In this document: in pieces, positions 2,335 to 61,631 of the stretch
Position numbering within the stretch: the stretch's first letter is position 1
How the letters are laid out: each line of letters opens with the position of its first letter
Source: a virus
Lineage: Duplodnaviria > Heunggongvirae > Uroviricota > Caudoviricetes
Direction: 5' to 3' (one strand)
DNA length: 64,000 bases
Virus record (IMG/VR): IMGVR_UViG_3300037484_000445
Location: 387,926 to 451,925 of that record
Position numbers and translations under genes: made by a program
The notes under the pieces: model-generated
Databases searched by the model: none
Seen by the model: the letters and a program-made list of their open reading frames with translations, nothing else
Told to the model about the DNA's origin: nothing

Positions 2335-3105
2335 TTAAGGAAGGCCGATAGCTCTTCGGTGTTCTGGGCCGAGGAGCGATTCTTGGCCGCACCGGTTGCA
2401 AGAGCCCATTGAGAGGACGGCATGTGTGAGTTCCTCGTTGGAGCTATTGACGGTGCCGATGGGGAAGCAGAAGCGGCTTTCTCCGGCGGTGATGGTACCG
2501 TCGTGTGACACTGCGGGTGAGCAGAAGCCTGACTTCCCTAGGGCGCCGCGGATCCGAAGCATTCTGATGGCTTCCGGGACCGAGTTGAAGTACCGAACCA
2601 TGGATCGGAAGTTGAAGGAGCTGGGGCTTATTCTCGGATTCAGCCCTTTTGGGTCGAAGTTTGGTTTTGCGGCCCGACCGATTGTAGACAACAGAGTGAG
2701 GTTATCGACGTAGTGGACCCTTGGGTGTTTGAAGTGCGGTGGCTTCCTAGGGTAATACCGTGCGTCGTTGGTGACTTGGATCGTGACCTTCCAATCGTCT
2801 CGAAGAAGAGCGTCCCGGAGGGGTTCATTGTCGAGCCAGAGGCCGTGGGTTAGGATCATGACGATCCACTTACGGTCGACCACTTGCTTGACCATCTCGA
2901 GGATTTCTGGATTATCGGTGCATTCCCCGCCGGAGAGGAGGACCATCGTGGGGATCCCTGCCTTGAGGGCTTTGCACTCGGCTCTTTCGGTGAAGTCCAG
3001 GGCCTTTTGGAAGAGGGACAGATCCATGTGGGATCCGGCGGGGAGGGCGTCCTCGAGGCAGTGGCTACAGCCCATTTTGCAGGCGTTTGTGACTTTGATA
3101 AGCAT
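2335..3105 (-). CDS. Radical SAM protein
   Basis: N-terminal CxxxCxxC (CKMGCSHC), SGGE motif, C-terminal Cys cluster. Confidence 0.9.
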   Translation of the reverse strand: MLIKVTNACKMGCSHCLEDALPAGSHMDLSLFQKALDFTERAECKALKAGIPTMVLLSGGECTDNPEILEMVKQVVDRKWIVMILTHGLWLDNEPLRDALLRDDWKVTIQVTNDARYYPRKPPHFKHPRVHYVDNLTLLSTIGRAAKPNFDPKGLNPRISPSSFNFRSMVRYFNSVPEAIRMLRIRGALGKSGFCSPAVSHDGTITAGESRFCFPIGTVNSSNEELTHAVLSMGSCNRCGQESLLGPEHRRAIGLP

Positions 3106-3641
3106 TATTGCTTAGCTCTCCACCAAATCCACTGTTGTTTCTCGGCGTTTGTGCCGTCGGTCACTTCGAAGCCGGCCAATTCGAGGGCCTTCTTAGCCCG
3201 AGGGAAGTTGGCTTGGGCGATAGGGGCGACCTTCCATCCTGGTTTGAACACGTCCAAACCTACAGGTGTCAGCGCATCGTCCTCGATGGTTTTCGGATCG
3301 ATACCCAGGAAGGCGAAGTCGATGTCGGCGTTGAAGGGTGCTGTGATCTCTGGGCTCAGGTTGCAGAGGGCCTCAAGGAGTATTCTTGCGGCGAAGTTGA
3401 TGGCTTCTTTCTTGGCTACTTCGAGATCGTAGAAACGCCTACTATTGCAGAACACGCCGAAAGAGATTTTGTAGTAGGTTTGGTCTTCGGGCTTCCCCCA
3501 AATAGAAGGCCCGTATTCTCGGACGGTGATTTGGTAAACAGCAGGGCCACCATTGGGTGGGATCAGATCCACGTAATGAAAAGAGTCGTCGACCTTCCAA
3601 ACGAGGTTCGTGCCGGCGAGAAGGGTAGTCAGGTCCATCAA
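3105..3641 (-). CDS. Hypothetical protein
   Basis: 178 aa ORF overlapping both neighbours. Confidence 0.7.
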   Translation of the reverse strand: MMDLTTLLAGTNLVWKVDDSFHYVDLIPPNGGPAVYQITVREYGPSIWGKPEDQTYYKISFGVFCNSRRFYDLEVAKKEAINFAARILLEALCNLSPEITAPFNADIDFAFLGIDPKTIEDDALTPVGLDVFKPGWKVAPIAQANFPRAKKALELAGFEVTDGTNAEKQQWIWWRAKQ

Positions 3642-4099
3642 AGTGTTTCCGTGTAGGTGACGTAGGGGAAGGCGACGAAGCCTTCGGGGAGGATTTCGAC
3701 CCAGTTGATGGCGTCTATCAATTCCTTACGATTTTTCTCGGTGGTATGCCGGAGAACTTGAGCCATGATGTCGCCGAGGTCACCGTGGACGACGAGGTCA
3801 CCACGCTTTGCTGAGTTGCCGTTGCCGGCTGAGCACTCGAACAAGCTCTCGAGGATTGTCTGCAGGATATGCCGCTTGGGTAAAGCAGTTCGAATGGTTT
3901 CGAGCATATCGGCGTCGAATAGGAGCTTCAGTTGGGTCTCTTGGGCTACGATGATGTTCTTGAGGGCCACCACTTTATCTGGGATCCCAGTATCGGTCTC
4001 TGGAATGCGGGCCAGTTCGTCTCGATTGGCTTCGATTCTACGAAGGACCATTTGGATGCACTTGATTGGCACGGTGAGGGAGGCGTTGTCGTCTGGCAT
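3638..4099 (-). CDS. Hypothetical protein
   Basis: Class A motif 4109-4135, 9 nt before ATG. Confidence 0.75.
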   Translation of the reverse strand: MPDDNASLTVPIKCIQMVLRRIEANRDELARIPETDTGIPDKVVALKNIIVAQETQLKLLFDADMLETIRTALPKRHILQTILESLFECSAGNGNSAKRGDLVVHGDLGDIMAQVLRHTTEKNRKELIDAINWVEILPEGFVAFPYVTYTETL

Positions 4100-4278
4100 A
4101 GTGGTTAGTACGTCCGGTATGGCCGAAAGGTTAAGGGTTTCGATGGACGGGGTACCGCTCTAGGGACGCCACCTGACCGCCGCCATCCTCGACCAGGTCA
4201 CCACGGCCAGGGCTCCACTTCCCACACATTTGATCCGAGTATGTTGAAGGAAATTCTCGACGGTGTATAGTCTGGGAC

Positions 4279-4812
4279 ATGATTAGAGGACAGCTGACCG
4301 TGTTATCTGGACCGATGTTTGCTGGGAAGACGGACACGCTCATCACGATGGCTAGTGCCGTACCTGACGGTGACCGGCGAGTTTACTACCCGGAGATCGA
4401 CACACGATACGAAGCTGGTTATGTGACGGCACACAACGGTCGCAAGATCTTGGCTGAACCTGTAGATCTTCAGCTCTCTCGAGTAGTAGCGGCTCAGAAT
4501 GTCTTCATCGACGAGGCTCAATTCCTTACGGACTTGGAGGCTTTGGAGCGGGTCATGAAGATAGTACGAGGGGGTTCAAATGTCATCGTAGCCGGGCTCG
4601 ATTTGGACTACGCAGAGAAGCCATTTGGGTTGATGGGTGAGTTTATGGTACGATCAAACAAGGTCCTGAAGATCACAGGAACTTGTTCTCACTGTGGGGC
4701 TCCTTCGACCCGAACATACCGCAAGACTTCCGGGATAAGTGATGTTGTGTTAATAGGTGGAAGTGAGTGGTACGAGCCTCGGTGTCTCGATTGTTACCTT
4801 TCTGGTAAGTGA
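4279..4812 (+). CDS. tdk: Thymidine kinase
   Basis: GPMFAGKT P-loop, IDEAQF, AGLDLDY...PF, CxxC and YEPRC zinc ligands. Confidence 0.97.
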   Translation: MIRGQLTVLSGPMFAGKTDTLITMASAVPDGDRRVYYPEIDTRYEAGYVTAHNGRKILAEPVDLQLSRVVAAQNVFIDEAQFLTDLEALERVMKIVRGGSNVIVAGLDLDYAEKPFGLMGEFMVRSNKVLKITGTCSHCGAPSTRTYRKTSGISDVVLIGGSEWYEPRCLDCYLSGK

Positions 4813-11857: not shown

Positions 11858-12357
11858 ATGTTTGTAACAGCCGATCAACTACTTTGTCATCTCGTGGGCG
11901 ACTATCTACTTCAAAGCGACTGGATGGCCACGGAGAAAACGAAGAAGTGGGTGGCGTGCCTGGCCCATGCAATCACCTACACACTACCTTTCCTACTCCT
12001 CACGACTTCTTGGAAAGCTCTCTTGGTCATCTCGGCTAGCCACTTCGTCATCGACCATTGGCGCTTGGCTCGATACCTCTGTTGGATCAAAAACTATTTA
12101 GCCCCCAAGTGGATCGAAGGTGAGCGGGTTGAGACGAAGGAACCCAACACTATTGTGGGCTATGCCGACGGCACTACTAGGTTTTGGATTACAAATGGGT
12201 TCCTCGGATGATAAGGAACTACTCTTGGTCCGAGTGCGTGGCGACGGGCTACCACAAGGATCGTCCGGTGTGGCTGACGGTGTGGCTCATGATCATCACC
12301 GACAACACGATGCACTTCATCTGCAATGGGTTGGCCCTTAAGTTTTTGGGGTCTTAG
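11858..12357 (+). CDS. DUF3307-family membrane protein, frameshifted at T4 run 12182-12185
   Basis: HLVGDYLLQ, AH..TY, SHFVIDH in frame 1; the C-terminal DNTMH motif is in the -1 frame. Confidence 0.85.
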
Positions 12358-24599: not shown

Positions 24600-24944
24600 A
24601 TGCCCGAATCAACGATACCCGTCGGAAATCCCAAGGTTTCTTTCGAGAAGCTCCCTTGCGGGATGTTGGTGAATACATCAACCGATCCTCCCCGCTACCA
24701 CCCGATCATTTTCCGGTATAGCCCGCCTCCGAGCGGTGATTTGGATAGTGGGGCTCGACGCTATAAGTCCTCCGGGCACCACACCGCAGGCTTTGACACG
24801 TTGGAAGAAGCCATGGCTTCCATTCAGGCTCAACCGAGCTGGCAGTGGACAGGTCTTGCCTGGGAGTGGAACGGTGAGGGCGTACCCGCTATGGTTGAGT
24901 GGTTCTTGAAAATGGACCCCTCTACGGAGACCCAAACATCATGA
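24600..24944 (+). CDS. Hypothetical protein
   Basis: Class A motif 24558-24583 plus AGGAG RBS; RYKS.GHHTAGFDTLEEA. Confidence 0.8.
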   Translation: MPESTIPVGNPKVSFEKLPCGMLVNTSTDPPRYHPIIFRYSPPPSGDLDSGARRYKSSGHHTAGFDTLEEAMASIQAQPSWQWTGLAWEWNGEGVPAMVEWFLKMDPSTETQTS

Positions 24945-25456
24945 TCGCAATTTACGCCGGCAGCCTAGACCCCATCACCTACGGGCATTTTGATGTCATC
25001 CTTCGGGCGGCAAAGATTTTCGATGAGGTTGTCGTTGGTATAGGCACCAACGGCTCGAAAAACTCTCTGTTCATCCCGGGGGAACGCCAAGAGCTGGCCC
25101 GAGCCGTCTGTTCAGAGATCGGGAACGTGCGTGTTGAGATCTTCAAGGATCTCTTGGTGACGTTTTGCAAGCGTGAAGGCGCTGACATCATCGTCCGGGG
25201 GTTTAGAGCGGTCTCAGACTTCGAGTACGAGCTCGGGGTGGCCCACGTCAATGGTCAACTCGATCCGAATATAGAGACCGTTTTCTTGCCGACTAAGCCT
25301 AAGTATTCCTTCATCTCGTCCTCAACCGTCAAGGATATTGCTAGCCATGGGGGTCCCTTGGACTATTATGTCCACCCAATCGTGGCCACAGCCCTTAGAA
25401 AGAAGTTCGGATGTACGAGTTCCTACCCAACAGCAGTCCCGAAAACCGACGGCTGA
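24941..25456 (+). CDS. coaD: Phosphopantetheine adenylyltransferase
   Basis: AIYAGSLDPITYGH, IVRGFRAVSDFEYE, ETVFL, ISSS.VK. Confidence 0.96.
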   Translation: MIAIYAGSLDPITYGHFDVILRAAKIFDEVVVGIGTNGSKNSLFIPGERQELARAVCSEIGNVRVEIFKDLLVTFCKREGADIIVRGFRAVSDFEYELGVAHVNGQLDPNIETVFLPTKPKYSFISSSTVKDIASHGGPLDYYVHPIVATALRKKFGCTSSYPTAVPKTDG

Positions 25457-47793: not shown

Positions 47794-48083
47794 CGTTGCA
47801 GCAATCACGCTTTGATACCAGCTACAATCGGTGGAAGCACAAGACTCTAGGTTACAAGGTCAAAGTTGTGGACATTCGTCACAACAGTCGCCCTGACGGA
47901 AGCCTCTATTCTGTGGTGATTGTAGAGGGCACACACTTGAGCAAGAAGCAGAAAAGAACGTGGCCCGCTAGTACATTCAGAGATACTTTCACGCCAATTG
48001 GTGCTAAGAATAAGGATCGAACAGTTTTGGATTACATTCTTACTGGCGAGGATCTGGATGAGGATCCCAAAGCACCAACCTAG
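47790..48083 (+). CDS. Small SH3-like protein with C-terminal RTVLD.IL motif
   Basis: ATGA overlap. Confidence 0.65.
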   Translation: MTLQQSRFDTSYNRWKHKTLGYKVKVVDIRHNSRPDGSLYSVVIVEGTHLSKKQKRTWPASTFRDTFTPIGAKNKDRTVLDYILTGEDLDEDPKAPT

Positions 48084-48088
48084 GTAAA

Positions 48089-48343
48089 GTGCCTGAGGTA
48101 GTTTCAATGTTTCTTTCTTTGCTATTGGGTTGCAGCAGCATGCTGTTCACCAATGCCTCCATACGAGCTCACGACGCTATTCCAGCCTGCCGCTACCGTG
48201 AGCTTCAAGGACTTCGAAACAAGACCCAGACGTACACGGGGTTGTCCGTGGCCTTGGGTCTAGCTCCCTTGTGGTGGCCGCCGTTAGGGATCCCGGTTAC
48301 GTTGGTGTCGATTGGCTATATGGCCTATAAGCGTTTGGCTTAA
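48089..48343 (+). CDS. Small membrane protein
   Basis: Hydrophobic segments; its stop lies within the next promoter motif. Confidence 0.6.
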   Translation: MPEVVSMFLSLLLGCSSMLFTNASIRAHDAIPACRYRELQGLRNKTQTYTGLSVALGLAPLWWPPLGIPVTLVSIGYMAYKRLA

Positions 48344-48372
48344 GTTCTATTCCAACCGGCCGTAATGGAGAT

Positions 48373-49206
48373 ATGCTCCCTAAGTCTGAATTTGACCGAA
48401 TTCTGATGAGTCCACAAGTTCGATCTATGCTCGAAGAGCTTCTGATCGACGGGGAGCTGCAGAGGACTTTCCCCGAAGTTCATGCCATGGTTGGCTTTGG
48501 TGGCGGGGAACAAGGTCACAAGGACCTTTGGGGGCACACCAAGCAGGTCGTTTACCAGTGCCCGTATGACCTCACCATTCGATGGGCGGCCTTATTCCAC
48601 GACGTGGGCAAGATTCGATGCTTCGTACGAAACAACGACGGAGTGTCTTTCCACGGACATGAGATTGCAGGTGCTAGGCTATTTAGTAATGCCGCTTCAC
48701 GCACCCGACTCTTCAAGGCTCAAGAAATAGGGGATATCTACCTTCTCATTGGAACCTTAGGCTACGTTGAGTCCTATGAATCCGAGTGGACGGATAGTGC
48801 CGTACGACGACTGAGAAACTCAGTTGCAGACTGCTTCGACAGTCTTTTGAGTCTGTCCCGAGCGGACATTACCACGCGGCATGATCACAAGCGAGTTGCT
48901 CACCACGCGAGAATTCAAGAGTTGAAGGACCGAGCCGACGCTATTCTAAAGGCAGATTCGGCTACTCCGATGCTTCCCAGGGATTTGGGTACCGCCCTTC
49001 AAAAGGACCTGGGTATAGCACCCTCACCTCTTCTTGGGAAAATCGTAGCTGCGATCAAATCCGCTGTAGCAGCGGGGGACTTGCCTTGGCCCCCCACGAT
49101 CGAACAAGCTGTCGAACACGCAAAAACCGTATGTATACCCCAAATATCCGCACCACCCACAACCCCCGAAACATTGCCGCCTACGGAGGATCTTACGACC
49201 CGGTGA
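48373..49206 (+). CDS. HD-domain protein like the C-terminal half of CCA tRNA nucleotidyltransferase (no NTase head)
   Basis: FPE...HKDLWGHT, AALFHDVGK, SFHGHE..GA, WTDSAVRR, RADITT. Confidence 0.88.
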   Translation: MLPKSEFDRILMSPQVRSMLEELLIDGELQRTFPEVHAMVGFGGGEQGHKDLWGHTKQVVYQCPYDLTIRWAALFHDVGKIRCFVRNNDGVSFHGHEIAGARLFSNAASRTRLFKAQEIGDIYLLIGTLGYVESYESEWTDSAVRRLRNSVADCFDSLLSLSRADITTRHDHKRVAHHARIQELKDRADAILKADSATPMLPRDLGTALQKDLGIAPSPLLGKIVAAIKSAVAAGDLPWPPTIEQAVEHAKTVCIPQISAPPTTPETLPPTEDLTTR

Positions 49207-49733
49207 CCTTAGGCCACCTGATGGTGGTAACGCACCTTCTGCTTAATGAATTGAACGTGGACTACATTCACGTGATTCCTTGTTTCCAGCAGACGGGTAA
49301 GAATCTTCAGCCTTTCGGGGTGAGAATGACTATGTGCCGGGCGGCTTTTGCCCATCTTCCTAGGACATACGTAGACCCTATCGAAGAAGAGCTAGGCGGC
49401 GAAAGCTTGACTATCAATCTGGTTCGAGCCTTGAAGCACCGTTACCCTCACGACAACTTACGATTCGTTATGGGGGCAGACTTGCTGGAGTCTGCTCCCA
49501 CATGGCAAGGCTGGGAGGAGATCAATCGATTGGCACCACCCCTCATCATTGGGCGTGCTGGTATCACCCCCGTCAGTGGTGAGAGCCCAAGCCCTATTTC
49601 GCCGCTCGTCAGTGCCTCTATCGTGCGTAAGGCCCTCGAGGCCCGAAACTACGAACTCGCCGAACGTTATATACCCTCGCCAGCCCTGCAAATCATTCAG
49701 GATCATCACTTGTACACGACTCAAGTCCCTTAG
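49131..49733 (+). CDS. nadD: Nicotinate-nucleotide adenylyltransferase
   Basis: YGGSYDP.TLGH, R..M, E.ELGGESLT, FVMGAD...W..W, VSAS.VR. Confidence 0.9.
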   Translation: MYTPNIRTTHNPRNIAAYGGSYDPVTLGHLMVVTHLLLNELNVDYIHVIPCFQQTGKNLQPFGVRMTMCRAAFAHLPRTYVDPIEEELGGESLTINLVRALKHRYPHDNLRFVMGADLLESAPTWQGWEEINRLAPPLIIGRAGITPVSGESPSPISPLVSASIVRKALEARNYELAERYIPSPALQIIQDHHLYTTQVP

Positions 49734-51115
49734 TCGAAGGGAGAGTCGTCATCAAGGACACGATCAAGCACAGTCTTACGCTCAAGAACTTTGGCACCCC
49801 AAAAATCCTTAATGTCTATCTGTTTGGAGCCGCCCTCATTCTTCAACTTGATCTCGCGTATACCAATGTCTTGAAGCTCACCCCAATTCTCTTGGTCTGG
49901 GCCATACGTGTACTCGAGGCCAACCTTCCACGTACTACGCTCTTGGTTGGCGTCGTGTTCTAGCTGAAATTCATCAAGAGTAGCCACATAGTGGTTATCC
50001 TTGATGGTGAACTTTACCGCCGTAATGTCTTGGCGTTCCTCAACACTTAGAACGGAGCTGTAACACCCCTCATCACGGTTGTACCAGTGTTCCCCTTGCT
50101 TCGGCACAGATCTCAAGGGATTTGGGTTGTTTCTGGCCCCTGTAGGGACGCTACTCGAATTGGAAAGGTCGTACGTCAGAATGCGCTTAAACTTCTCACG
50201 TAGTCCCACCTCGTTGAACTTTGTAACCAAACTTGGGTCTGTTGGGTTGGTACATAGTATGTCTCCGTCAAACTTGGGGATCCTAGCGACACGTATGATG
50301 TGTGTTGGATCCGCACGGCTCTGCCATAAGGTGCCCAGGCGTAGCTTCTGATGCAGAATATCGCGTTCTTCAGGGCTAAGACTGGGCGTGCCTAGAAGCA
50401 TCAAGACACCCTGACCATACTTCGCATCGAACGATGTTCGTGTCTCTATCGAAGTACCTTGTGTGACTTGGGTGAGAATGTTGTTGATGAGGGGTACGTC
50501 TGTAGCCGGCCTTAGTATGTCAGATCCCAAAAAGGTAGTGATGTCTGTGCATTCCTTTGCAATCAACAGATGCAAGGCCTGGGTGAGCCCCTGTCCTAAT
50601 GCTTCATGATCCAGATCTCTATTTGATGGGTTTATGAGGGTTTGGATCAACAGTGGCACGAAAACACTTTGGCACGAGCAGGAAGAGACTATACAGCCTT
50701 CGACGAGTCCCCAAATCTTGTCCCGTACCGAAGCAGGGGTCTTACACACTGGGCATTGGCCAAACAAGTCCTTTACGAGTTTGGGATCTTCAGACAGGTT
50801 ATCACCTGGAAAGTACACAGGTTGATGCTTCGGCGCGTGCTCTTCACAGTAGTTTGCCTTGTCCAAACCAATGACTAAGGCTTGGTTGGTACAGGGTTCT
50901 TGACTTACGTGCGAACAAGTCTTGTTGAGTGCGGGAGCCGAAAACTTCCACATCAACTTGAGGGACTGTTCTGTGATGTGCGTGACCTGTCGGCTACGAC
51001 TCAGAATACGATACCCTGAAGTTCCATGGCGAGCTGATAGAACCGCTGTCACAGTAGTGTTAGTGCCGTTGTTTGTCGTCCAAACTTCACCGATTTGAGG
51101 ATTGTCCTGTGGCAT
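49730..51115 (-). CDS. Multi-module protein with four SH3-like G..W repeats and zinc fingers
   Basis: PQIGEVW, RLGTLW, PKQGEHW, KVGLEY; C-terminal KTVLDRVLDDD. Confidence 0.7.
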   Translation of the reverse strand: MPQDNPQIGEVWTTNNGTNTTVTAVLSARHGTSGYRILSRSRQVTHITEQSLKLMWKFSAPALNKTCSHVSQEPCTNQALVIGLDKANYCEEHAPKHQPVYFPGDNLSEDPKLVKDLFGQCPVCKTPASVRDKIWGLVEGCIVSSCSCQSVFVPLLIQTLINPSNRDLDHEALGQGLTQALHLLIAKECTDITTFLGSDILRPATDVPLINNILTQVTQGTSIETRTSFDAKYGQGVLMLLGTPSLSPEERDILHQKLRLGTLWQSRADPTHIIRVARIPKFDGDILCTNPTDPSLVTKFNEVGLREKFKRILTYDLSNSSSVPTGARNNPNPLRSVPKQGEHWYNRDEGCYSSVLSVEERQDITAVKFTIKDNHYVATLDEFQLEHDANQERSTWKVGLEYTYGPDQENWGELQDIGIREIKLKNEGGSKQIDIKDFWGAKVLERKTVLDRVLDDDSPFD

Positions 51116-51133
51116 GTGGTGTAAAGGTCCAGA

Positions 51134-51523
51134 GTGAAAGTTCTTGTTTTCGGTTCTCGTAACTGGCTCAATCAGAAGGCCATAGAGAAGGTCCTTCGAG
51201 GATTGCCCCCTGGCACGGTTGTGGTCGAAGGGGATGCCAGAGGTGCCGATCGTATCGCGGGCTTCGTAGCACGTCTTCTAGGGCTTACTGTGCGGGTCTA
51301 TCCGGCCCTTGCCAACAACCGTACTTGGCCCTCGGCGGGCCCTTTACGGAATCAGGAGATACTGGATTGTGAGCATCCTTCTGAGGACGGTACCTTCATT
51401 GACAGGGCGTTCTGTTTTCATGAGGACCCCAACTTAGGTAAGGGATCTCGTGATATGGTGGCTCGTCTACGCAAGGCTCAGCCTCCAATAGTCGTTGAAG
51501 TCAGCATTGACCGACTACCCTGA
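51134..51523 (+). CDS. SLOG-family protein (DUF2493/YspA-like)
   Basis: LVFGSRNW, EGDARGAD, AGPLRNQ, KGSRDM. Confidence 0.88.
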   Translation: MKVLVFGSRNWLNQKAIEKVLRGLPPGTVVVEGDARGADRIAGFVARLLGLTVRVYPALANNRTWPSAGPLRNQEILDCEHPSEDGTFIDRAFCFHEDPNLGKGSRDMVARLRKAQPPIVVEVSIDRLP

Positions 51524-51734
51524 ACCGTTGAGAAAGGCTACGACCTTCCGTATCCAATCGGCTCCAAGCAAATCCTTGTAGACGACCTTAGAGTTTGAAC
51601 GCATAACACGAGCTCCGTGTTCATCACAGTAACGGCCCATTGTAACCAAATTCACGAGTGGCTGGCCCTTTACAGACACAACATCTACAAGCTTGTGAGT
51701 CCAACTTTTCACGTAACAGATCTTCAGCAGTCAC
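51515..51734 (-). CDS. Small zinc-finger protein, frameshifted at 51636-51638
   Basis: Class B motif 51746-51751; removing one G joins CCVCKGPAT to YCDEH. Confidence 0.65.
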
Positions 51735-51751
51735 ACCTAGGAACATACACC

Positions 51752-52705
51752 ATGGACAATGATTCTTCTTGCGGGCCTGAGATTCAAGCACGTGAAGTTG
51801 TAGCTAAGATGAAAGAGGCAGACGCCCGAGAAGACTTTTCGGGGAAGTGCGACCTTCTCACAGACTTACCCCGTGATGTCTTGCTTGAGGTTGTTAAACT
51901 CGAACAAGCGAACGATCGCAAAGAGTATGGTGCCTACTTCACACCTGAGAATTCTCTCAACGATACGAAAGTCCACACATCACCCTCAGATAAGTATCGC
52001 CTCGAGACAACGCACTTCAAGTCAACTTCAGGGGGCTGGCACCTATGCCAAGGGCGGGTGTTTGAAAAGGACTCGAGTACTCCTCTATTCGAAGTCAACC
52101 GGAACTACGGTGCTTTCCCCTTCTCTTGGGTAGAACAACACCCTAATGGTCATGACTACTTGGTCTGCGGTGAGGACTACCAAGGGGCCACGGTGCTTGA
52201 GTTGGATAGTGCCCAGCGAGTCGACTACTTGCCGGTCCTAGCGATTCTAGGCTGGGGATTTTGCTGGGGTAGTCACTACCCTTCCCCTGGAAAGACATTG
52301 CTGGCTATTGAAGGTTGCGTCTGGGCGGGCCCTTACGAGATCGTCATACACGACTTCTCGGACCCTATGCATCCTCCGTGGCCCGAAGTCCACGTGAACC
52401 AGGAAGCTCAAGCTTTTGATGTGTGGTTGACCGAGGAGTCCTATCGGACCAAGGACGAACAACCTCCGCAAGGCGCTCACGTCATCCAGATTCAACCATT
52501 CCTCGAACACGTAAAGCAGTACATCTTGGGTGAAGTTGAACACTTAGCCCGAACAAACAACATCAGTCCGGACGACAGTTTCATGATCGAGGTTCTACTT
52601 GAAAAGCTCGGTAAGTTGTCCCCGGACGACCTCATGAATATCCATCTCGATCCTACCATCAGGGGTTACTTCGACACCTTGAGGGAGCGGGGATTTCGGG
52701 TTTAG
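51752..52705 (+). CDS. Hypothetical beta-rich protein
   Basis: AGGA RBS; YLVCGEDYQG, GFCW, EGCVWAGPY. Confidence 0.75.
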   Translation: MDNDSSCGPEIQAREVVAKMKEADAREDFSGKCDLLTDLPRDVLLEVVKLEQANDRKEYGAYFTPENSLNDTKVHTSPSDKYRLETTHFKSTSGGWHLCQGRVFEKDSSTPLFEVNRNYGAFPFSWVEQHPNGHDYLVCGEDYQGATVLELDSAQRVDYLPVLAILGWGFCWGSHYPSPGKTLLAIEGCVWAGPYEIVIHDFSDPMHPPWPEVHVNQEAQAFDVWLTEESYRTKDEQPPQGAHVIQIQPFLEHVKQYILGEVEHLARTNNISPDDSFMIEVLLEKLGKLSPDDLMNIHLDPTIRGYFDTLRERGFRV

Positions 52706-52793
52706 CTTTTCGTGTTCTCGAATAATCCGGCACATAATCCGAATTTCTTCACCTGCATAGTCTGGCTGGACGTAAGTATATCGAGAAGGGTTA

Positions 52794-53744
52794 CTAAGGT
52801 TTGGCATCTTCGGGAACTTCAGGTGCTAGTTCAAAGAGAAGATCTTCGACACGTATCAGGTGTTGAGCTTGTTCCAGTTGACCTAGATACCCTTCCAAGG
52901 CAGCACGACCATAAAGGGACCCTGCCAGAGCGCCGGTTATGGCCGCGGTCGTGTCCGTGTCTCCGCCGGCATGGATGGCGAGGGCCACGGCATCCTGGTA
53001 GCTGGTAGTGCCCAGAAAACACAAGAAAGCCGCGGGAATTGTTTGAACTACATGGGCCCCAGTACCCCATTGAATCAGGGTATTGAGAATGTCCGCAGGA
53101 CTCGGATTGGATTGCAGAACCCTTTTCACCCGTATGAGCCCCTCCTGCACCTTTGAGTCGTTCAGAAAGGCGATAACAGGGGCTAGAACCTCAGATTTAG
53201 CATACCCGTCGCAGAGCAAAGAGACCCCTATGGCAACGGCGGCGGAACCTTCACTGGCCTCAATGGAATTGTGGGTTAGGCCGGCATCGATCCGAGCCAT
53301 GTGTGCCGCTGTCAAAACGTTACGGTGGTAGAAAGCCCCAATGGGAGCCACTCGCATGGCCGTACCGTTGCCCTCTGCATGCAAGATACCGGACTGATCC
53401 CAGTGATAGCCTTGAGAGATCCTTTGGAGAGCTTGCTTTATAGTCTTTCCCATACCTCGGTGGTCACCAGAATCGTACCACTCCATGTATCTGGCCAAAG
53501 CCGACACAGGATTGTATGTCTCCGCTTCTACAAGGCTCGTGGCGAGGGCTAGAGCCGCCTTAGTGTCATCCGTCCATTCTCCAGGCTTGCGTTCTGGTTG
53601 AATCTCGTTGATCTCCCACGTATGAAAAGAGCCGTCCCACCTAGCCAGTTCTTGCGAAGAGAAATGCTTGGTCTCGAAGGGACCGCCCAAGCTATCACCA
53701 ATGGCCAAACCAAGAAGAGGTGCGGGTTGTCGGGATTCTGTCAC
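52794..53744 (-). CDS. ADP-ribosylglycohydrolase (DraG/ARH family)
   Basis: GLAIGDSLG.P.E, WTDDT, GNGTAMR.AP, GGDTDT.AAITGALAG. Confidence 0.96.
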   Translation of the reverse strand: MTESRQPAPLLGLAIGDSLGGPFETKHFSSQELARWDGSFHTWEINEIQPERKPGEWTDDTKAALALATSLVEAETYNPVSALARYMEWYDSGDHRGMGKTIKQALQRISQGYHWDQSGILHAEGNGTAMRVAPIGAFYHRNVLTAAHMARIDAGLTHNSIEASEGSAAVAIGVSLLCDGYAKSEVLAPVIAFLNDSKVQEGLIRVKRVLQSNPSPADILNTLIQWGTGAHVVQTIPAAFLCFLGTTSYQDAVALAIHAGGDTDTTAAITGALAGSLYGRAALEGYLGQLEQAQHLIRVEDLLFELAPEVPEDAKP

Positions 53745-54097
53745 GTACGAGCTTCCTTGCGTTTGGGGGCCTTGACAAACTTACGCTTTTTCGATCCGTA
53801 GAGTCCGTGGAACTGTAGGTCCTGAGGACTCATAGTCCTTATGGCCCGTCGAGCCTTCAAATAGGCTTCACGGATCGTGAGACCGTAGGTAAAAAGCTTA
53901 GGTTGGTTGGAGTATCCTAAAGCAATACACCAGATCATGATGCAGCTTTGCCCGACATCTGCGGACTTTTTGAGTTCTATCCCGTAGCTCTTCCACAAGG
54001 TTCGATCAAGGATCACCCTCGTAATTGAGGGATCTGCCGTATTGGGGTTAGTTAGTAGGCTAGTGAGACTCTTGTCAATATCCCAACGCATGGTCAC
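53741..54097 (-). CDS. Hypothetical protein co-transcribed with the ADP-ribosylglycohydrolase
   Basis: Class A motif 54130-54155; GTGA overlap. Confidence 0.7.
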   Translation of the reverse strand: MTMRWDIDKSLTSLLTNPNTADPSITRVILDRTLWKSYGIELKKSADVGQSCIMIWCIALGYSNQPKLFTYGLTIREAYLKARRAIRTMSPQDLQFHGLYGSKKRKFVKAPKRKEART

Positions 54098-54201
54098 CGT
54101 CCGAAGTTCTTGAAGTCACAACGAATAGATACGGTCGGCCTGGTTGTCGATTAAGCCCAAAAAGGCATTAAGTCCTTCAGCGAGTGGCCGTATAGACCCC
54201 C

Positions 54202-55782
54202 ATGCTTCAGACCACATCGGACGCCCTGAACAATTTCGACGAACCTCTGCCTGAGTATATACCTATCACCCGGACGGATGGCTACAAGCTATCGATGGCA
54301 GAAGCTGGGGCACCTCTCCGCATTGAAAGCTTCTACTACGCCCACCGTCGCGGCGGTATCAATGGCTGGCACTACATGCCAGTGGACGTCGACCAGTTCG
54401 TTCGGTCCCTGTTGCCAACACCCAAACCCGAGGACTACGATTATCTCACGCATCACAACTACGAAGTCGGGGCGGCCTATCGTCGGGCCATGACCATGCG
54501 GGACAGTCTTGTGGTGAGAGGGGTGCCGAAGGGCTGTTGGTTCTACAACCGTGAGCCTGCTTACTCGGTCAAATCCACTTCCGTGATCTCTAGTTGGATC
54601 GAACCCACGGGGTTGATGCTCCAGTTTCGCATTCAAGCGGCCACGGCCATGCTCACCAACACCAACAAGGAGCGTCTTAAGTATGCGACATGCCTGAAAG
54701 AAAAGGAGATTCTTCTCGAGTTGTACGAAAGCCTTGGGGTCCGAGCGCCTGAGATCATCGTACGTTCGGAAGATTACTTCAAAGCCGTCCTCAAGCGAGG
54801 ACAGGATATTGTGATGCTCTTGGGAGATCCCAGCCGGGCCTTTGAAGTCGGCATGCGGGCGGTGTCCTGCATTGAGCAGCATGAGATTGCTCTTGCTGCC
54901 TTGAAAGAGGCTGGCATCGTTCGAACCTCTAACGTAGAAGCTGCCCAAAAGCTGGACATGGTCCCTGTGGGGACCATGGGCCACGAGCATCTTCAGCGAA
55001 TGGGTAGCGATTACGAAGGCTTCACGTCCATGCGTGATCGATTCCCCGGGTTTCTCTCCTACCTCCTCGATACCTTTGATACGTTGCGGTCAGGGATCCC
55101 AACGGGTCTCCGCGTGATAGCCGAGCAACCCTACCGTCAAGCAGGCCTTCGATTCGACTCAGAAAAGTCTGTTCTAGGCCAGTACGTGTTCGCCGTCGCT
55201 CGATCGCGGGACATGGGCTTGGAGCCCTACCTCACCCTCGAGAGTGGTTGGGACTACCAAAAGACTGTTGAATACGAGAAGTATCGGGAGATGCTTGGTT
55301 GGCCCAGCAAGCTTCAGGGGTATGGCTACGGTGGGTACTTCGTCAAACCTGAGTGGCCCACCTTCGAGCGTGATGGTGTGGCCGCCGTGTACAAGCTGAG
55401 CCAGACCGGTAGCAAGGCTTGCATGAAGTTCGGAGATGACCCCGGCAGCCCCAAGCAGTCAATCCCGGGCGAGCCTGTCATTTGGCGATACAAGCCCTTG
55501 AGTTGCTACCAAGGGAATCTAATCAGCGTGATTGCCCAGGACGGAGAGGTCATCCCCAACCAAGAGGCTTTTTACCGGGTTGACCTCGAGGGAGCTGACT
55601 ACCTACCTCCTATGAAAGCCGGTAAGCCCGATCAAATACCGTCTCACATGACTCTGTTGAAGAGACGTCTCGGAATCACTGACGAAGGCGAAGTTCAAAT
55701 GTCTCCTGAGACAGCCCGTTTGATTGCCGAATGCACAGCACGTCGCGAAGCAGCCATCGACAAGGCTTCAGGGGCATTATGA
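54202..55782 (+). CDS. pncB: Nicotinate phosphoribosyltransferase
   Basis: TDGYKLSM, FEVGMR, TSNV, GTMGHE, LLDTFD, RFDS, VYKL. Confidence 0.85.
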   Translation: MLQTTSDALNNFDEPLPEYIPITRTDGYKLSMAEAGAPLRIESFYYAHRRGGINGWHYMPVDVDQFVRSLLPTPKPEDYDYLTHHNYEVGAAYRRAMTMRDSLVVRGVPKGCWFYNREPAYSVKSTSVISSWIEPTGLMLQFRIQAATAMLTNTNKERLKYATCLKEKEILLELYESLGVRAPEIIVRSEDYFKAVLKRGQDIVMLLGDPSRAFEVGMRAVSCIEQHEIALAALKEAGIVRTSNVEAAQKLDMVPVGTMGHEHLQRMGSDYEGFTSMRDRFPGFLSYLLDTFDTLRSGIPTGLRVIAEQPYRQAGLRFDSEKSVLGQYVFAVARSRDMGLEPYLTLESGWDYQKTVEYEKYREMLGWPSKLQGYGYGGYFVKPEWPTFERDGVAAVYKLSQTGSKACMKFGDDPGSPKQSIPGEPVIWRYKPLSCYQGNLISVIAQDGEVIPNQEAFYRVDLEGADYLPPMKAGKPDQIPSHMTLLKRRLGITDEGEVQMSPETARLIAECTARREAAIDKASGAL

Positions 55783-57698
55783 CGTACATCAAGGTTGGCA
55801 CGGCGTGCTTGAATCAAACCCCCCTCGATTGGGAAGGTAACAGGCAACGGATCATGGCAGCCCTAGAAGCGGCTAGAGCTGCAGGAGTAGACCTTCTGTG
55901 CCTTCCCGAGCTGTGCATCACCGGCTACGGTTGCGAGGACCTCTTTCACAGTCCCGAAGTTTGTGAAAGAGCTATAGATACCCTCTACCAGATAGCCTCA
56001 GATTCTCCGATAAACCCAGTCTTTTGTGTTGGGTTACCCGTCATCCACAACGGTGCTCTATATAACACAGTAGCCGTGATTCAGCACAATCGTGTTCTTG
56101 GCTTCGTTACTAAGCAACATCTAGCGGGGGACGGTATTCACTATGAACCTCGTTGGTTCAAGCCGTGGCCAGAAGGCGTTGTGAAGACGCTGGACAATAG
56201 ACACAAGCCGATTGGCGACCTACAGTTCGACTTCAAAGGTGTCAAAGTTGGATTTGAAATCTGTGAGGATGCTTGGGTAGCAAATCGTCCCGGTGCTACC
56301 TTGGCCCGCAAAGGCGTGGATATCATCATGAATCCCTCGGCGTCCCATTTCGCCATTGGGAAGAATACAACCAGACGTCGATTCGTCGCCGAAGGCGCAA
56401 GGGCCTTCAGGGTGACGTACCTCTACGCCAATCTCGTGGGCAATGAAGCGGGACGAGCTATCTACGACGGGGATTGCCTTATTGCGGGCGGATCCAACGG
56501 GGATATCCTAAGCGAAGGACCAAGGTTCAGCTTTAAGGATATGGAACTCACCACGGCCGTCGTGGACCTCAGCTCTACACGGGTTCCTCGAATTGGTTCG
56601 GCTTCTTTCACGCCAGATCTATCAACAACATTCATCGAAGGTAGCCATTTTGAGGGAACATTTGAGCCCCTTACGAGAAACGCCGATCTGAAGTACTGGG
56701 ACGATTACGAAGAGTTTCAAGAAGCCGAAGCCCTAGGCCTTTGGGATTATGCCCGAAAGAGCCACTCGAAGGGGTATGTGATCTCCTTGAGTGGCGGAGC
56801 TGACTCAGCTGCTTGTGCCTATCTCGTGGACTATGCTCTCCAAAGGGCTGTGGCTACTCATGGCACAGACGCTGTGGAACGAATGGTTGGGACCAACAAC
56901 CTTTATGATTTTCTCACGTGTGTCTACCAAAGCACCGAGAACAGTTCAGACACAACCTTTGCAGCTGCGGAAACCCTCTCTGAGAACATTGGTTGTAAGT
57001 TCCGAGAGCTCGACGTCGAGGATATCGTCCAAGCTTACGTGAAGGGAATATCCAAATCCTTAGGCCTGTCATTGACGTGGGGAAGTAACGATATTGCCCT
57101 ACAAAACATTCAGGCCCGTGTACGAGCTCCCAGTGCTTGGTTGATAGCCAACTTGGAAGGTAAACTCTTGATTACGACCAGTAATCGGAGTGAGGCTGCT
57201 GTTGGTTATTGCACAATGGATGGGGATACTGCGGGTAGCATCGCTCCTATAGCCGGGGTAGCCAAAGCCTTTCTTCTCGGGTGGCTTCGTAGTGAGCCTG
57301 TCCAGAAGTCCTACACAAGTGCGGCTCTCATAACAGCCCAGAAGCCTACGGCGGAACTTCGTCCTGGTTCAACTCAAACCGACGAAGATGACCTGATGCC
57401 CTACGGTATTCTGAATGCCATCGAAACTTGGGCGATCGAAGGCAAGCTGGGACCCTCTGAGGCTTATGATCGCCTCATGATGTCTCAACCCCTCGATGAG
57501 GACCAAGCCTACGAGTACATACGTAAGTTCTACACGTTGTGGTCAAGAAACCAATGGAAGCGTGAGCGCTACGCCCTGGCCTTCCACATAGCTTCCAGGA
57601 ACCTCGACCCCAGATCGTGGTGCCGATTCCCGGTGTTGTCGTCGGGATTCGAACTCGAACTCAAAGAGCTCAAAGAGCGTATTATGAAGGATCGTTGA
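55779..57698 (+). CDS. nadE: Glutamine-dependent NAD+ synthetase
   Basis: Nitrilase domain (PEL, K, EICED) plus SGGADS, NIQARVR, GYCTMDGD, PTAEL. Confidence 0.96.
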   Translation: MTYIKVGTACLNQTPLDWEGNRQRIMAALEAARAAGVDLLCLPELCITGYGCEDLFHSPEVCERAIDTLYQIASDSPINPVFCVGLPVIHNGALYNTVAVIQHNRVLGFVTKQHLAGDGIHYEPRWFKPWPEGVVKTLDNRHKPIGDLQFDFKGVKVGFEICEDAWVANRPGATLARKGVDIIMNPSASHFAIGKNTTRRRFVAEGARAFRVTYLYANLVGNEAGRAIYDGDCLIAGGSNGDILSEGPRFSFKDMELTTAVVDLSSTRVPRIGSASFTPDLSTTFIEGSHFEGTFEPLTRNADLKYWDDYEEFQEAEALGLWDYARKSHSKGYVISLSGGADSAACAYLVDYALQRAVATHGTDAVERMVGTNNLYDFLTCVYQSTENSSDTTFAAAETLSENIGCKFRELDVEDIVQAYVKGISKSLGLSLTWGSNDIALQNIQARVRAPSAWLIANLEGKLLITTSNRSEAAVGYCTMDGDTAGSIAPIAGVAKAFLLGWLRSEPVQKSYTSAALITAQKPTAELRPGSTQTDEDDLMPYGILNAIETWAIEGKLGPSEAYDRLMMSQPLDEDQAYEYIRKFYTLWSRNQWKRERYALAFHIASRNLDPRSWCRFPVLSSGFELELKELKERIMKDR

Positions 57699-57943
57699 TG
57701 GCACAACAAGGGCTAGAAATCGACAAGGAATACCTGACGCCGGCAGGCTTTATCGTTAGAATCCTGAAGATCGAGGGAGGTAAAGCGGAAGTCTGGCTGA
57801 CGCATCAAGATGTCGTGCGAGAGATGAAAATAGAAGACATCTTACAGCTAGGTGGTACCTGTTCTGTCTGCGGAGGGCAGAAGCCTCAAGGGTGGGATAA
57901 GTGTGTGCATTGCACGAATATGGATACCTTCGAGCCTGGCTAA
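57698..57943 (+). CDS. Small SH3-like plus zinc-ribbon protein
   Basis: TGATG overlap; CSVC...CVHC. Confidence 0.7.
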   Translation: MAQQGLEIDKEYLTPAGFIVRILKIEGGKAEVWLTHQDVVREMKIEDILQLGGTCSVCGGQKPQGWDKCVHCTNMDTFEPG

Positions 57944-57965
57944 ACCTTTGGTATAAGTACCCAGA

Positions 57966-58259
57966 ATGATGCAATGTCTTGATTTGGAAGGGGGTCGCGT
58001 TGTCGAAATCCCTTCCACAGCGCTTCAGGAATTGACCCTTGGACGCAAGACCTCAGACCCCTTGGTTTTCTTTGCCCAAGACGGGCTTGCCATTTTAGTG
58101 GTCGATAACACCCTCGTACGCATAGGAACGGCAACCTTCCCGGCTGCTCCACAGCATCGAGACAAGAGCCCTCTACGCCTGGTTTGTGACCGTTTGAAGA
58201 GGCGTTTCGTTGCCGAGGATGTTCAGCTGAGCCATCCCGTACTACAGCGGCTTTCTTAG
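57966..58259 (+). CDS. Hypothetical protein
   Basis: GGTATA variant motif 10 nt upstream. Confidence 0.65.
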   Translation: MMQCLDLEGGRVVEIPSTALQELTLGRKTSDPLVFFAQDGLAILVVDNTLVRIGTATFPAAPQHRDKSPLRLVCDRLKRRFVAEDVQLSHPVLQRLS

Positions 58260-59364: not shown

Positions 59365-60156
59365 ATGGACAAATTTGGCTACCGCCCAGACCCTCCTAAG
59401 TCGACGGATAAGGACTTCTCAACGCTCCTCCGTCCTAAGCTTGTTAGGGTAACCACCGGGGACGTAGACCTTAGGCCTTACTGCACTACGACCAACCAAT
59501 ATGGCCTCGGGGCTTGTGCTGGGAATGCCACCGCAGATTCTGTGGAGATAACCAACGCGATCGAGGGTAAGCCCCCAGTTCAATTGTCTCGACTCTTCGT
59601 CTACACCTTGGCCCGAAATATGGCGGATGAGGACGGGGATGGTCGTAGCGACATTAACAAGGATGAAGGCACTTACATTAGGTTGTGCTTCGATGTCCTT
59701 GCCAAGTTTGGGATCTGCCGTGAGGATCTTCCTGCGGGTCAAGGCGGCTGGCCTTATGACCTTACCAAAGCTTTCACGCTTCCCGATCTGAAGGCTATGC
59801 GAGCGGCAACGGCCCATCGCATTCACAGCTATTACCGAATCTATGAGACAGGCAGTAGTCGCATCGATGCCATGATCGAGGCCCTACAAGGCCAACACCC
59901 GATCGTCTTTGGTACAATTGTCGATCAGTCTTTCATGGATCTGAGTGACGACACCCCTTGGAGTCCGACAGGTACCACCCTCGGGGGCCACGCCATGGTG
60001 GTTGTTGGATACCTTCGCGCTCTCGGTTTCATCGTCAAGAACAGCTGGGGACCGGATTGGGGTATGAAAGGCTTCTGCATTATGAAGCCCGAAGTCTTCA
60101 TCTCCAGCAGCACCAGTGATATTTGGGTGCCCACGAGTGGAACTGTTTTTCGATGA
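59365..60156 (+). CDS. Papain-like (C1) cysteine peptidase
   Basis: NQYGLGAC, LSRLFVY, GGHAM..VGY, KNSWG..WG..G. Confidence 0.94.
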   Translation: MDKFGYRPDPPKSTDKDFSTLLRPKLVRVTTGDVDLRPYCTTTNQYGLGACAGNATADSVEITNAIEGKPPVQLSRLFVYTLARNMADEDGDGRSDINKDEGTYIRLCFDVLAKFGICREDLPAGQGGWPYDLTKAFTLPDLKAMRAATAHRIHSYYRIYETGSSRIDAMIEALQGQHPIVFGTIVDQSFMDLSDDTPWSPTGTTLGGHAMVVVGYLRALGFIVKNSWGPDWGMKGFCIMKPEVFISSSTSDIWVPTSGTVFR

Positions 60157-61019: not shown

Positions 61020-61631
61020 ATGATTCTTAGTGGCCCCGAGATCCTCAAACAGGTAGAGCTAGGCAACATCAGAATTGACCCCTTCAATGCCAAAAGGGTC
61101 AACCCGGCGAGCTTCGATCTGACCCTCGGAGACCAGGTTGCCGTTTACTCAAACGTGGTCGACTTCCTCCAGGGAGAGATACCGAGTTTCGGGCACAACT
61201 TGGTGCCAAAGCGTGACGGTATCTTGGACACAGCAAAAAATGAAGGTGTCCTGAGGTACAAGATCCTTCCAGAAGGGTGGCTTTTGAAGCCAGGCATCGG
61301 ATACTTGATGCATACGGCGGAAACCGTATGGACGAAGAGCTATGTACCCGTGCTAGATGGTAAATCATCCATTGGGCGTATGTTCATCAAGGTCCACGAG
61401 ACCGCGGGCTACGGCGATCCAAACTTCGACGGTCAGTATACTCTTGAGGTGACCGCTGTACATCCAGTCATTGTCTATCCAGGGATGCGCATTGCTCAGA
61501 TTCGCTTCCATGCTATGGAGGGCGAACTGGCTTTATACGACGGCAACTACAAGAACGAAAACGCCAAGGGTCCCGTACCTTCGCGTGTTTGGGCCCAGAT
61601 TAAGAATGAGGGCCTGGGCAAAAAAGATTGA
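61020..61631 (+). CDS. dcd: dCTP deaminase
   Basis: MILS, PASFDLTL, GKSSIGR, AGYGDPNFDGQYTLE, GMRIAQ. Confidence 0.94.
   Translation: MILSGPEILKQVELGNIRIDPFNAKRVNPASFDLTLGDQVAVYSNVVDFLQGEIPSFGHNLVPKRDGILDTAKNEGVLRYKILPEGWLLKPGIGYLMHTAETVWTKSYVPVLDGKSSIGRMFIKVHETAGYGDPNFDGQYTLEVTAVHPVIVYPGMRIAQIRFHAMEGELALYDGNYKNENAKGPVPSRVWAQIKNEGLGKKD

Follow-up and report, generated by a model that had tools for sequence, protein, structure and literature searches.

A predicted deamidating NAD+ salvage set in an uncultured jumbo phage and its relatives

Depletion of nicotinamide adenine dinucleotide (NAD+) is among the commonest strategies used by bacteria against phages, and to our knowledge the three phage pathways experimentally shown to rebuild NAD+ all retain the amide. 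Here we describe a window of 64,000 nucleotides, the final 64 kb (positions 387,926 to 451,925) of the 451,925-bp IMG/VR virus record IMGVR_UViG_3300037484_000445, which carries at 48.3-57.7 kb a cluster built around a gene for a PncB-like phosphoribosyltransferase (PRTase) followed by nadE. Taking this cluster together with a nicotinamidase-like gene, X, located elsewhere in the record, we judge it reasonably likely that the phage has all the genes for a deamidating salvage of NAD+ (salvage I plus the universal steps, that is, PncA plus the Preiss-Handler pathway), which would most likely keep NAD+ available during infection. Coordinates are those of the window, unless preceded by G000, which denotes the full record, that is, the phage's own genome; other G and L numbers denote related records and loci.

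NARP1, made of Adps and Namat, and NARP2, made of Nampt and a bifunctional Nmnat/Nudix enzyme (for example, KVP40 NadV/NatV), have been found by experiment to overcome defence (bioRxiv 10.1101/2024.02.11.579819). Like them, the set described here would rebuild NAD+ from nicotinamide, the product of NADases, and it uses a type II PRTase fold. Unlike these amidated, Nampt-family routes, it has a NAPRT-like PRTase and no Adps, and would need both a nicotinamidase and an amidating NadE. NARP3, which combines a PnuC-like transporter with a NadR-like enzyme, is also an NAD+ restoration module of phages, proposed and tested as a counter-defence (PMC13464706, 2026), but it imports nicotinamide riboside and has no enzyme in common with the present set. 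In the surveys of Iyer and colleagues, only amidated salvage was described in phages (PMC7824862, PMC9503650).

The original prediction had presented the cluster as a third, nicotinate-based route. This claim of novelty does not hold as stated, since NARP3 had already been named (PMC13464706) and jumbo phages with a Preiss-Handler pathway had been published from KEGG and BLAST annotation: that survey of gut phages reports a pncB-nadD-nadE cluster (Kuafu_71; Kuafu_19) and mentions a phage pncA (PMC11662467, Microbiome 2024). The idea of phage Preiss-Handler salvage is thus itself not new. The present phage shares with Kuafu_71 and Kuafu_19 the pncB, nadD and nadE genes and the same pathway reading, annotation-based in both cases. 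It differs in that its PRTase clade lies below the Pfam and NCBIfam cut-offs, so the survey may have missed this clade. In addition, an operon of PRTase, NadE, PncA-like and VWA-like genes and a linkage with NrtR and an ADP-ribosylglycohydrolase (ARH) did not turn up in text searches of that paper. Our search of the literature returned no experiment on a deamidating route in phages, no defence test of a PncA/PncB/NadE set, and no "NARP4".

In bacteria, NrtR-associated genes are arranged as nrtR-pncA-pncB-nadD-nadE in Clostridium acetobutylicum, as nrtR-nadD<>pncA-pncB-nadE in Pseudomonas and as nrtR-draG in Streptomyces, and the NrtR operator is a 21-bp palindrome with a GT-N7-AC core, binding to which is relieved by ADP-ribose (Rodionov et al. 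2008, PMC2330246). The phage set resembles bacterial NrtR-controlled salvage in its PncA, PncB, NadD and NadE roles, in its Nudix plus winged-helix regulator and in candidate operators that follow the same rule, and it resembles the Streptomyces arrangement in that NrtR adjoins an ADP-ribosylglycohydrolase in several related phages. It departs from the bacterial systems in being encoded by a phage, in having divergent PncB-like and PncA-like clades that fall below curated thresholds, in showing operator candidates only at the operon of nrtR and the pncA-like gene, and in the VWA-like gene that follows X. What appears to be new here is that the enzyme clades are divergent and sub-threshold, that a four-gene operon is conserved, that NrtR and ARH are linked, and that the arrangement is split in this phage.

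The PncB-like enzyme and its neighbours

The PRTase gene (54202-55782, +) encodes a 526-aa protein predicted to convert nicotinate and phosphoribosyl pyrophosphate (PRPP) to nicotinate mononucleotide (NaMN). It belongs to a divergent clade and scores below the curated family cut-offs: the NAPRTase family PF04095 scored 17.4 bits on it against a gathering score of 20.8 and matched at E<0.01 in only 24 of 63 clade members, and TIGR01513 (63.5 vs 297.4) and TIGR01514 (23.5 vs 269.55) were both below cut-off. An exhaustive search collected ~112 clusters (50% identity) at E<1e-30 and only 461 at E<1e-3, and by similarity the clade is a distinct family, whose 63-sequence alignment carries the signature GTxGHEHxQR. 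Searching GenBank phages with the PRTase by tblastn gave partial matches only, at no more than 36% identity (for example, Bacillus phage G gp277), and none of the cultured phages in that collection carries the clade.

The assignment to PncB rather than Nampt, as originally predicted, was upheld by both structure and profile. The AlphaFold (AF2) model of the PRTase has a mean confidence (pLDDT) of 91 and aligned to the PncB-type NAPRTs 2im5, 3os4, 1vlp, 1yir, 4hl7 and 1ybe with VIA Z of 29.8-33.6 (root mean square deviation 2.9-3.5 over 353-371 residues), compared with 12-15.4 for NAMPT, NadV and Namat (13.4 for Namat 9w5w, 15.4 or less for NAMPT). The family profile matched NAPRTs (2f7f, 4e-32; the human enzyme, 1e-30), as against 6e-12 or weaker for NAMPT, and the single sequence searched against the Protein Data Bank (PDB) recovered NAPRTs only, with no NAMPT match. 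Residues Y28, R219 and H261 are invariant or nearly so in the 63 sequences and align to Y21, R171 and H213 of human NAPRT, the last of which we take to be the autophosphorylated histidine. In the human enzyme, Y21 is the ring-stacking tyrosine and R171 the PRPP-binding arginine (PMC4442680). Modelled fold and profile both place the 54202 enzyme with NAPRT, apart from Nampt and Namat.

Two other ideas were discarded. One was that E262, which stands beside the catalytic histidine at the position of S214 in human NAPRT, marks a specificity for nicotinamide; the fold is closest to the E. coli-type PncB class, which has the same GTxAHE motif. The other was a Namat-like transfer of nicotinate onto ADP-ribose pyrophosphate (ADPR-PP), giving nicotinate adenine dinucleotide (NaAD) directly. 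No Adps/Prs homologue was found: PRPP-synthetase-like Adps (PF13793) is absent from the phage's own genome and from the 20 related viral records from which the viral record counts below were taken, which excludes NARP1.

The second gene, nadE (55779-57698, +), starts at an ATG that overlaps the TGA of the PRTase gene (ATGA), so the translational coupling of pncB and nadE foreseen in the original prediction is visible in the DNA. Its product has the architecture of a glutamine-dependent NAD+ synthetase, with a nitrilase-like glutaminase domain (CN_hydrolase, 74.6 bits) and an ATP-pyrophosphatase synthetase domain (NAD_synthase, 114.2 bits), both above gathering. TIGR00552 scored 93.9 vs 63.65, and the full-length equivalog NF010588 was below its cut-off (277.8 vs 479). 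The predicted protein contains the SGGxDS loop (as SLSGGADS) and the sequence FEICEDAW.

The same prediction had placed nadD, an ADP-ribosylglycohydrolase and a SLOG protein beside pncB-nadE, and all three gene calls were confirmed. The NadD-type nicotinate-mononucleotide adenylyltransferase is predicted at 49131-49733 (+; ATG at 49131). It exceeded the threshold of PF01467 (CTP_transf_like, 41.5 vs 21), remained just under that of TIGR00482 (102.7 vs 112.45) and carries GGSYDPVTLGH, a motif of the (H/T)xGH type. All 18 of its 18 sequence matches in the PDB were to NadD enzymes, with 1kam the best (6.7e-15), and the protein is predicted to convert NaMN to NaAD. The genome holds a second cytidylyltransferase-like gene (window 24899-25456, +), which encodes a phage CoaD (pantetheine-phosphate adenylyltransferase; TIGR01510, 179.4 bits vs a cut-off of 103.3) and is not an NMN adenylyltransferase.

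The glycohydrolase gene (52794-53744, -) is an intact member of the ARH/DraG family (PF03747, 214.7 bits vs gathering 26.2) with the metal-binding motifs GEWTDDT and GGDTDT. Its PDB matches were MJ1187, Tri1, DraG and ARH3, and the TDD and DTD motifs align with those of MJ1187. This enzyme may remove ADP-ribose marks, its candidate substrates being protein-arginine-ADP-ribose or small ADP-ribose esters. The small SLOG (YAcAr/YpsA-like) protein at 51134-51523 (+) scored 27.0 bits with PF10686, against a gathering score of 28.2, and 4.3e-14 with phrog_289; a 61% identical copy adjoins NadD in the related record G003. Going by the literature, it could possibly bind or process ADP-ribose-derived nucleotides. 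A search for a macro domain yielded a sub-threshold match only.

A nicotinamidase-like gene, an NrtR regulator and their conservation

The original prediction had noted that no nicotinamidase was visible. This was right within the window, and its reach is limited by the presence of the PncA-like gene X in the same genome at G000:238670-239470, about 200 kb from PRT-NadE. A Pfam search of the genome with PF00857 had given no match; the apparent absence of PncA was overturned, and the suggested check for pncA elsewhere in the genome succeeded, once X was found by homology to a gene in the operon of the relatives. The phage's own X has no Pfam match at E<0.01, and the copies of the relatives, to which it is 43-54% identical, scored 19-24 bits against the isochorismatase-family gathering score of 27. 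The catalytic triad (D11, K157 and C207) and the metal site (D54, H56 and H123), including a WPxHC motif, do not vary within the family, and these motifs align to those of Pnc1 and PncA. The best PDB matches of the X profile were the nicotinamidases 2h0r (1.2e-10), 3pl1 and 1ilw. Finally, the model of X (pLDDT 84) gave Z of 19.7-22.2 to the twelve top-ranked entries, all of them nicotinamidases, and about 17-19.4 to other isochorismatase-like hydrolases. Motifs and modelled fold thus indicate that this phage very likely encodes a nicotinamidase, and with X in the genome the NAD+ route can start from nicotinamide.

X lies in a second NAD/ADP-ribose locus (L108, G000:233000-247000), about 150 kb upstream of the window. 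Its minus-strand operon comprises, in this order, orf221, NrtR, X, the VWA-like gene Y, a PP2C phosphatase, a kinase-like protein and NADAR, and beside the operon stand genes for a 263-aa NUDIX protein and a Nuc_deoxyri_tr2+NUDIX fusion. Y (G000:237872-238612) encodes ~247 aa with weak VWA-domain matches. A VWA-like protein follows X in L007, L013, L015, L017, L020, L023 and L024 (at ~11.3-13.3 kb in each), as in the phage's own genome, and likewise in 17 of 80 Myxococcota loci.

The gene preceding X (L108:6487-7185) was identified as nrtR by its NUDIX (43.2 bits) and NrtR_WHD (67.2 bits vs 27) domains and by its PDB matches to AraR (5bs6, 6.5e-34) and Shewanella NrtR (3gz5, 9.3e-29). Its Nudix box is degenerate, with RVLKDK instead of REUxEE. 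Upstream of it, at G000:240246-240289, are two tandem 21-bp palindromes with the GT-N7-AC core, TTTTGGT-N7-ACCAAAA (arms symmetric at 7/7 positions) and TTCTGGT-N7-ACCATAA (6/7). Both fit the published NrtR operator rule and are candidate operators; chance alone would give one loose palindrome of this kind in about every 11 kb. A scan for palindromes upstream of the PRT operons of the relatives found them in 3 loci vs ~0.65 expected by a rough estimate, which was too weak to be used.

The PRTase clade was found in 21 viral loci, many on contigs of 200-619 kb. In 19 of the 20 records, the PRTase gene is immediately followed by a NAD_synthase gene; the three closest relatives have NadE in the long, glutamine-dependent form, the others in a form of ~350 aa. 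The X family occurs in 17/20 records, following PRT-NadE in at least 9 distinct loci, NrtR in 13/20 and NadD-like genes in 12/20. In G008/9, G010, G013 and G018, PRT-NadE-(X)-NadD-NrtR-ARH stand on one strand within 7-15 kb. The PRT-NadE-NadD-NrtR-ARH island is therefore kept in four lineages, three of which have the PncA-like gene too. The connection with ADP-ribose drawn in the original prediction is supported by this recurrence of ARH, NadD and NrtR next to PRT-NadE, and the recurrent NrtR/ARH linkage is our best evidence that ARH belongs functionally with the NAD genes.

Outside phages, the PRT clade is chromosomal across Myxococcota (43-50% identity), where X, and not NadE, lies directly after the PRT gene in 67/80 loci. 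In a quick tree rooted on canonical NAPRT copies, used for placement only and not for direction of transfer, the viral sequences were deep and Myxococcota formed a shallow nested clade, which fits a mainly viral PRT family. Five contigs filed under metagenome-assembled genomes (MAGs; L025, L026, L027, L028 and L032) group with the phage PRT sequences. Among them are contigs labelled "Bifidobacterium breve" (18 kb), "proteobacterium" (165 kb) and "uncultured bacterium" (461 kb), and a Planctomycetota contig; L032 also carries a short NadE and ARH. All five are probably jumbo-phage DNA binned into MAGs. In the Myxococcus sp. Y35 chromosome (L045), an inorganic pyrophosphatase domain protein is encoded at 2993-4336, ~1.6 kb upstream of the PRT-X pair, and a link with the pyrophosphate-releasing PRTase reaction is possible.

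These comparisons also bear on whether the pathway is a classical Preiss-Handler one. The clade could use nicotinamide or another pyridine instead of nicotinate, or NadE could be an NMN synthetase, like that of Francisella, which converts NaMN to NMN. The clade is indeed very far from canonical NAPRTs, as shown by the quick tree, where a long branch separates it from the canonical NAPRTs of myxobacteria, and by its PF04095 score, and Myxococcota retain a separate canonical NAPRT. Moreover, 8/20 related records, some of them fragments, lack NadD, and most relatives have the short NadE without a glutaminase domain. We nevertheless hold this explanation to be improbable, given that the fold is far nearer to NAPRT than to NAMPT or Namat and that the PDB matches of the NadD-like protein are NaMN-type NadD enzymes only. 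Besides, a nicotinamidase-like gene kept beside the PRTase makes sense only with nicotinate as the PRTase substrate, and a conserved NadE only for a deamidated intermediate.

Gene map, promoter motifs and nature of the record

The HD-nadD unit opens the cluster. A promoter-like motif, TTAAGT-N14-GGCCGTA (48340-48364, +), stands 8 nt before the ATG of a gene for an HD-domain phosphohydrolase (48373-49206, +; PF01966, 25.6 bits; TIGR02692 positions 211-440), which is similar to CCA-adding enzymes in their C-terminal part. In this unit nadD comes second, and it overlaps the end of the HD gene by 76 nt. G003 keeps the order metallophosphoesterase, orf105, orf84, HD, NadD, SLOG. The cluster is broken up by two open reading frames (ORFs) without family match, orf461 (49730-51115, -; 461 aa) and orf362 (51617-52705; 362 aa), on either side of the SLOG gene, and ESM Atlas look-ups of both yielded nothing usable. 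The ARH operon begins with orf118 (53741-54097, -; 118 aa), which overlaps the ARH start by 4 nt. Pfam, NCBIfam and PHROG profile searches gave no family match for orf118; a 38% identical copy occupies the same position in L006. This operon is divergent from PRT-nadE, and each has its own promoter-like motif, TTAAT-N15-CCGTA (54130-54154, -) facing orf118-ARH and TTAAGT-N14-GGCCGTA (54168-54192, +) 9 nt before the PRTase ATG. Just downstream of the cluster lie genes for a papain-family (C1) peptidase-like protein (59365-60156; 64% identical in L006) and a dCTP deaminase-like protein (61020-61631).

The motifs at these three operons, designated class A in the original prediction, are real: TTAAK-N15-CCGTA has 5 matches in the window vs 0.08 expected from shuffles. 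Further examples in the window are at 12338, 35088, 41159 and 45805 (-). Genome-wide, the N16 form TTAA-N16-CCGTA has 12 copies and the N17 form 23, compared with 0-2 for spacings of 12-15 and 18-20. The start codon is mostly 8-10 nt downstream of the motif, frequently without a Shine-Dalgarno sequence, a pattern suggestive of mRNAs that are leaderless or have very short leaders. That the cluster stands under one promoter class is correct for the three operons, and it has little meaning, as the genome has 35 such copies, of which the final 100 kb of the record holds 22; the class is a general expression class, not a NAD regulon. Likewise, a motif does precede the HD-nadD unit as had been proposed for nadD, but it is the HD gene that follows it directly.

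The near relatives of the PRT-X pair on Myxococcota chromosomes raise the question of whether the record is a bacterial chromosome or a chimeric assembly, with ordinary host genes for NAD. A Terminase_6N search had no match and a tRNA scan of the window found no tRNA genes. In fact, such an origin is very improbable: the DNA belongs to a 452-kb IMG/VR virus record with a CheckV completeness of 94%, in agreement with the phage origin assumed at the outset, its 21 related loci sit on viral contigs that reach 619 kb, the majority of its ORFs have no family match and the genome uses promoter motifs of its own, associated with very short leaders. The GC content is ~52% across the window, unlike that of Myxococcota, which are high-GC. 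A megablast search of window 48000-58000 against GenBank phages had no match.

Proposed pathway and its purpose

The observations made here concern which genes are present, how their products fold, which catalytic motifs they carry, how the genes are coupled and which neighbourhoods are conserved; from them a pathway can be put together. The divergent PncA-like X (G000:238670-239470) would turn nicotinamide into nicotinate, from which the PncB-like PRTase at 54202 would make NaMN with PRPP. The NadD-like enzyme at 49131 would then convert NaMN to NaAD, and the glutamine-dependent NadE at 55779 would complete the pathway from NaAD to NAD+. One transcript, leaderless or with a short leader, would serve both the PRTase and NadE, whose translation would be coupled. 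As regulators of the NrtR family free their operator on binding ADP-ribose, a cleavage product of NAD+, the phage, with its nicotinamidase operon behind NrtR, would raise salvage while NAD+ is being broken down; part of the salvage set is probably induced by ADP-ribose. The purpose would be to supply NAD+ in hosts that fire NAD+-depleting defences and to the phage's own NAD-dependent DNA ligase, and the ARH, SLOG, NADAR and NUDIX genes may handle ADP-ribose conjugates and derivatives in the same conflict. We infer the substrates, the induction by ADP-ribose and the counter-defence role from the observations listed above.

Several points weigh against this interpretation. The activities of all these proteins are predicted from sequences and models, and the PRTase and the NadD-like, SLOG and nicotinamidase-like proteins all score below curated family cut-offs. 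The genes are split over two loci ~200 kb apart and broken up by unrelated ORFs. There is no NrtR-type palindrome at the PRT-NadE or HD-nadD promoters, so both operons are probably not NrtR-controlled, and the first palindrome upstream of nrtR overlaps a GGTGTA motif, a putative promoter-class element. Myxococcota with the PRT-X pair also hold a second, more canonical NAPRT, so the PRT clade could have shifted its substrate.

A plainer view would be that the same enzymes are ordinary auxiliary metabolism, serving ligase and redox needs in a large, slow infection, with no defence role and with ARH and SLOG unrelated. The genome does encode a NAD+ consumer, an NAD-dependent DNA ligase (G000:42628-43311, +; PF01653, 138.6 bits, 629-aa frame), and the gut-phage survey reads the NAD synthesis genes of jumbo phages mainly as a supply for NAD-consuming phage enzymes (PMC11662467). 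The promoter class is common to many unrelated genes, and unrelated ORFs interrupt the window cluster. In contrast, the tight linkage to ARH and to an ADP-ribose-sensing NrtR, which recurs in four lineages, the NADAR and NUDIX genes in the nicotinamidase operon region, the entry of the pathway at nicotinamide, which is the product of NADase defences, and the experiments in which other phage NAD pathways counter such defences (bioRxiv 10.1101/2024.02.11.579819; PMC13464706) all speak against a purely metabolic purpose, which we regard as unlikely, if still a serious contender. Deamidating salvage that keeps NAD+ available during infection is the reading we retain. A broader proposal is tentative and in our estimate would sooner prove wrong than right: many uncultured jumbo phages would share a fourth, deamidating NAD+ reconstitution (PncB-like, NadE, PncA-like and VWA-like proteins plus NadD, NrtR and ARH), induced by ADP-ribose and allowing escape from Thoeris, SIR2 and DSR, and the PncB-like/PncA-like pair would have been exchanged with Myxococcota.

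If the deamidating route is true, phages also use the longer, ATP- and glutamine-consuming salvage of bacteria. Such systems are probably under-counted, because their enzymes are too divergent for standard annotation, which misses them. The four-gene set is small enough for direct cloning and testing. And if the phage-borne NrtR acts as its family does, the virus would sense a chemical trace of the host defence, ADP-ribose, to induce its countermeasure.

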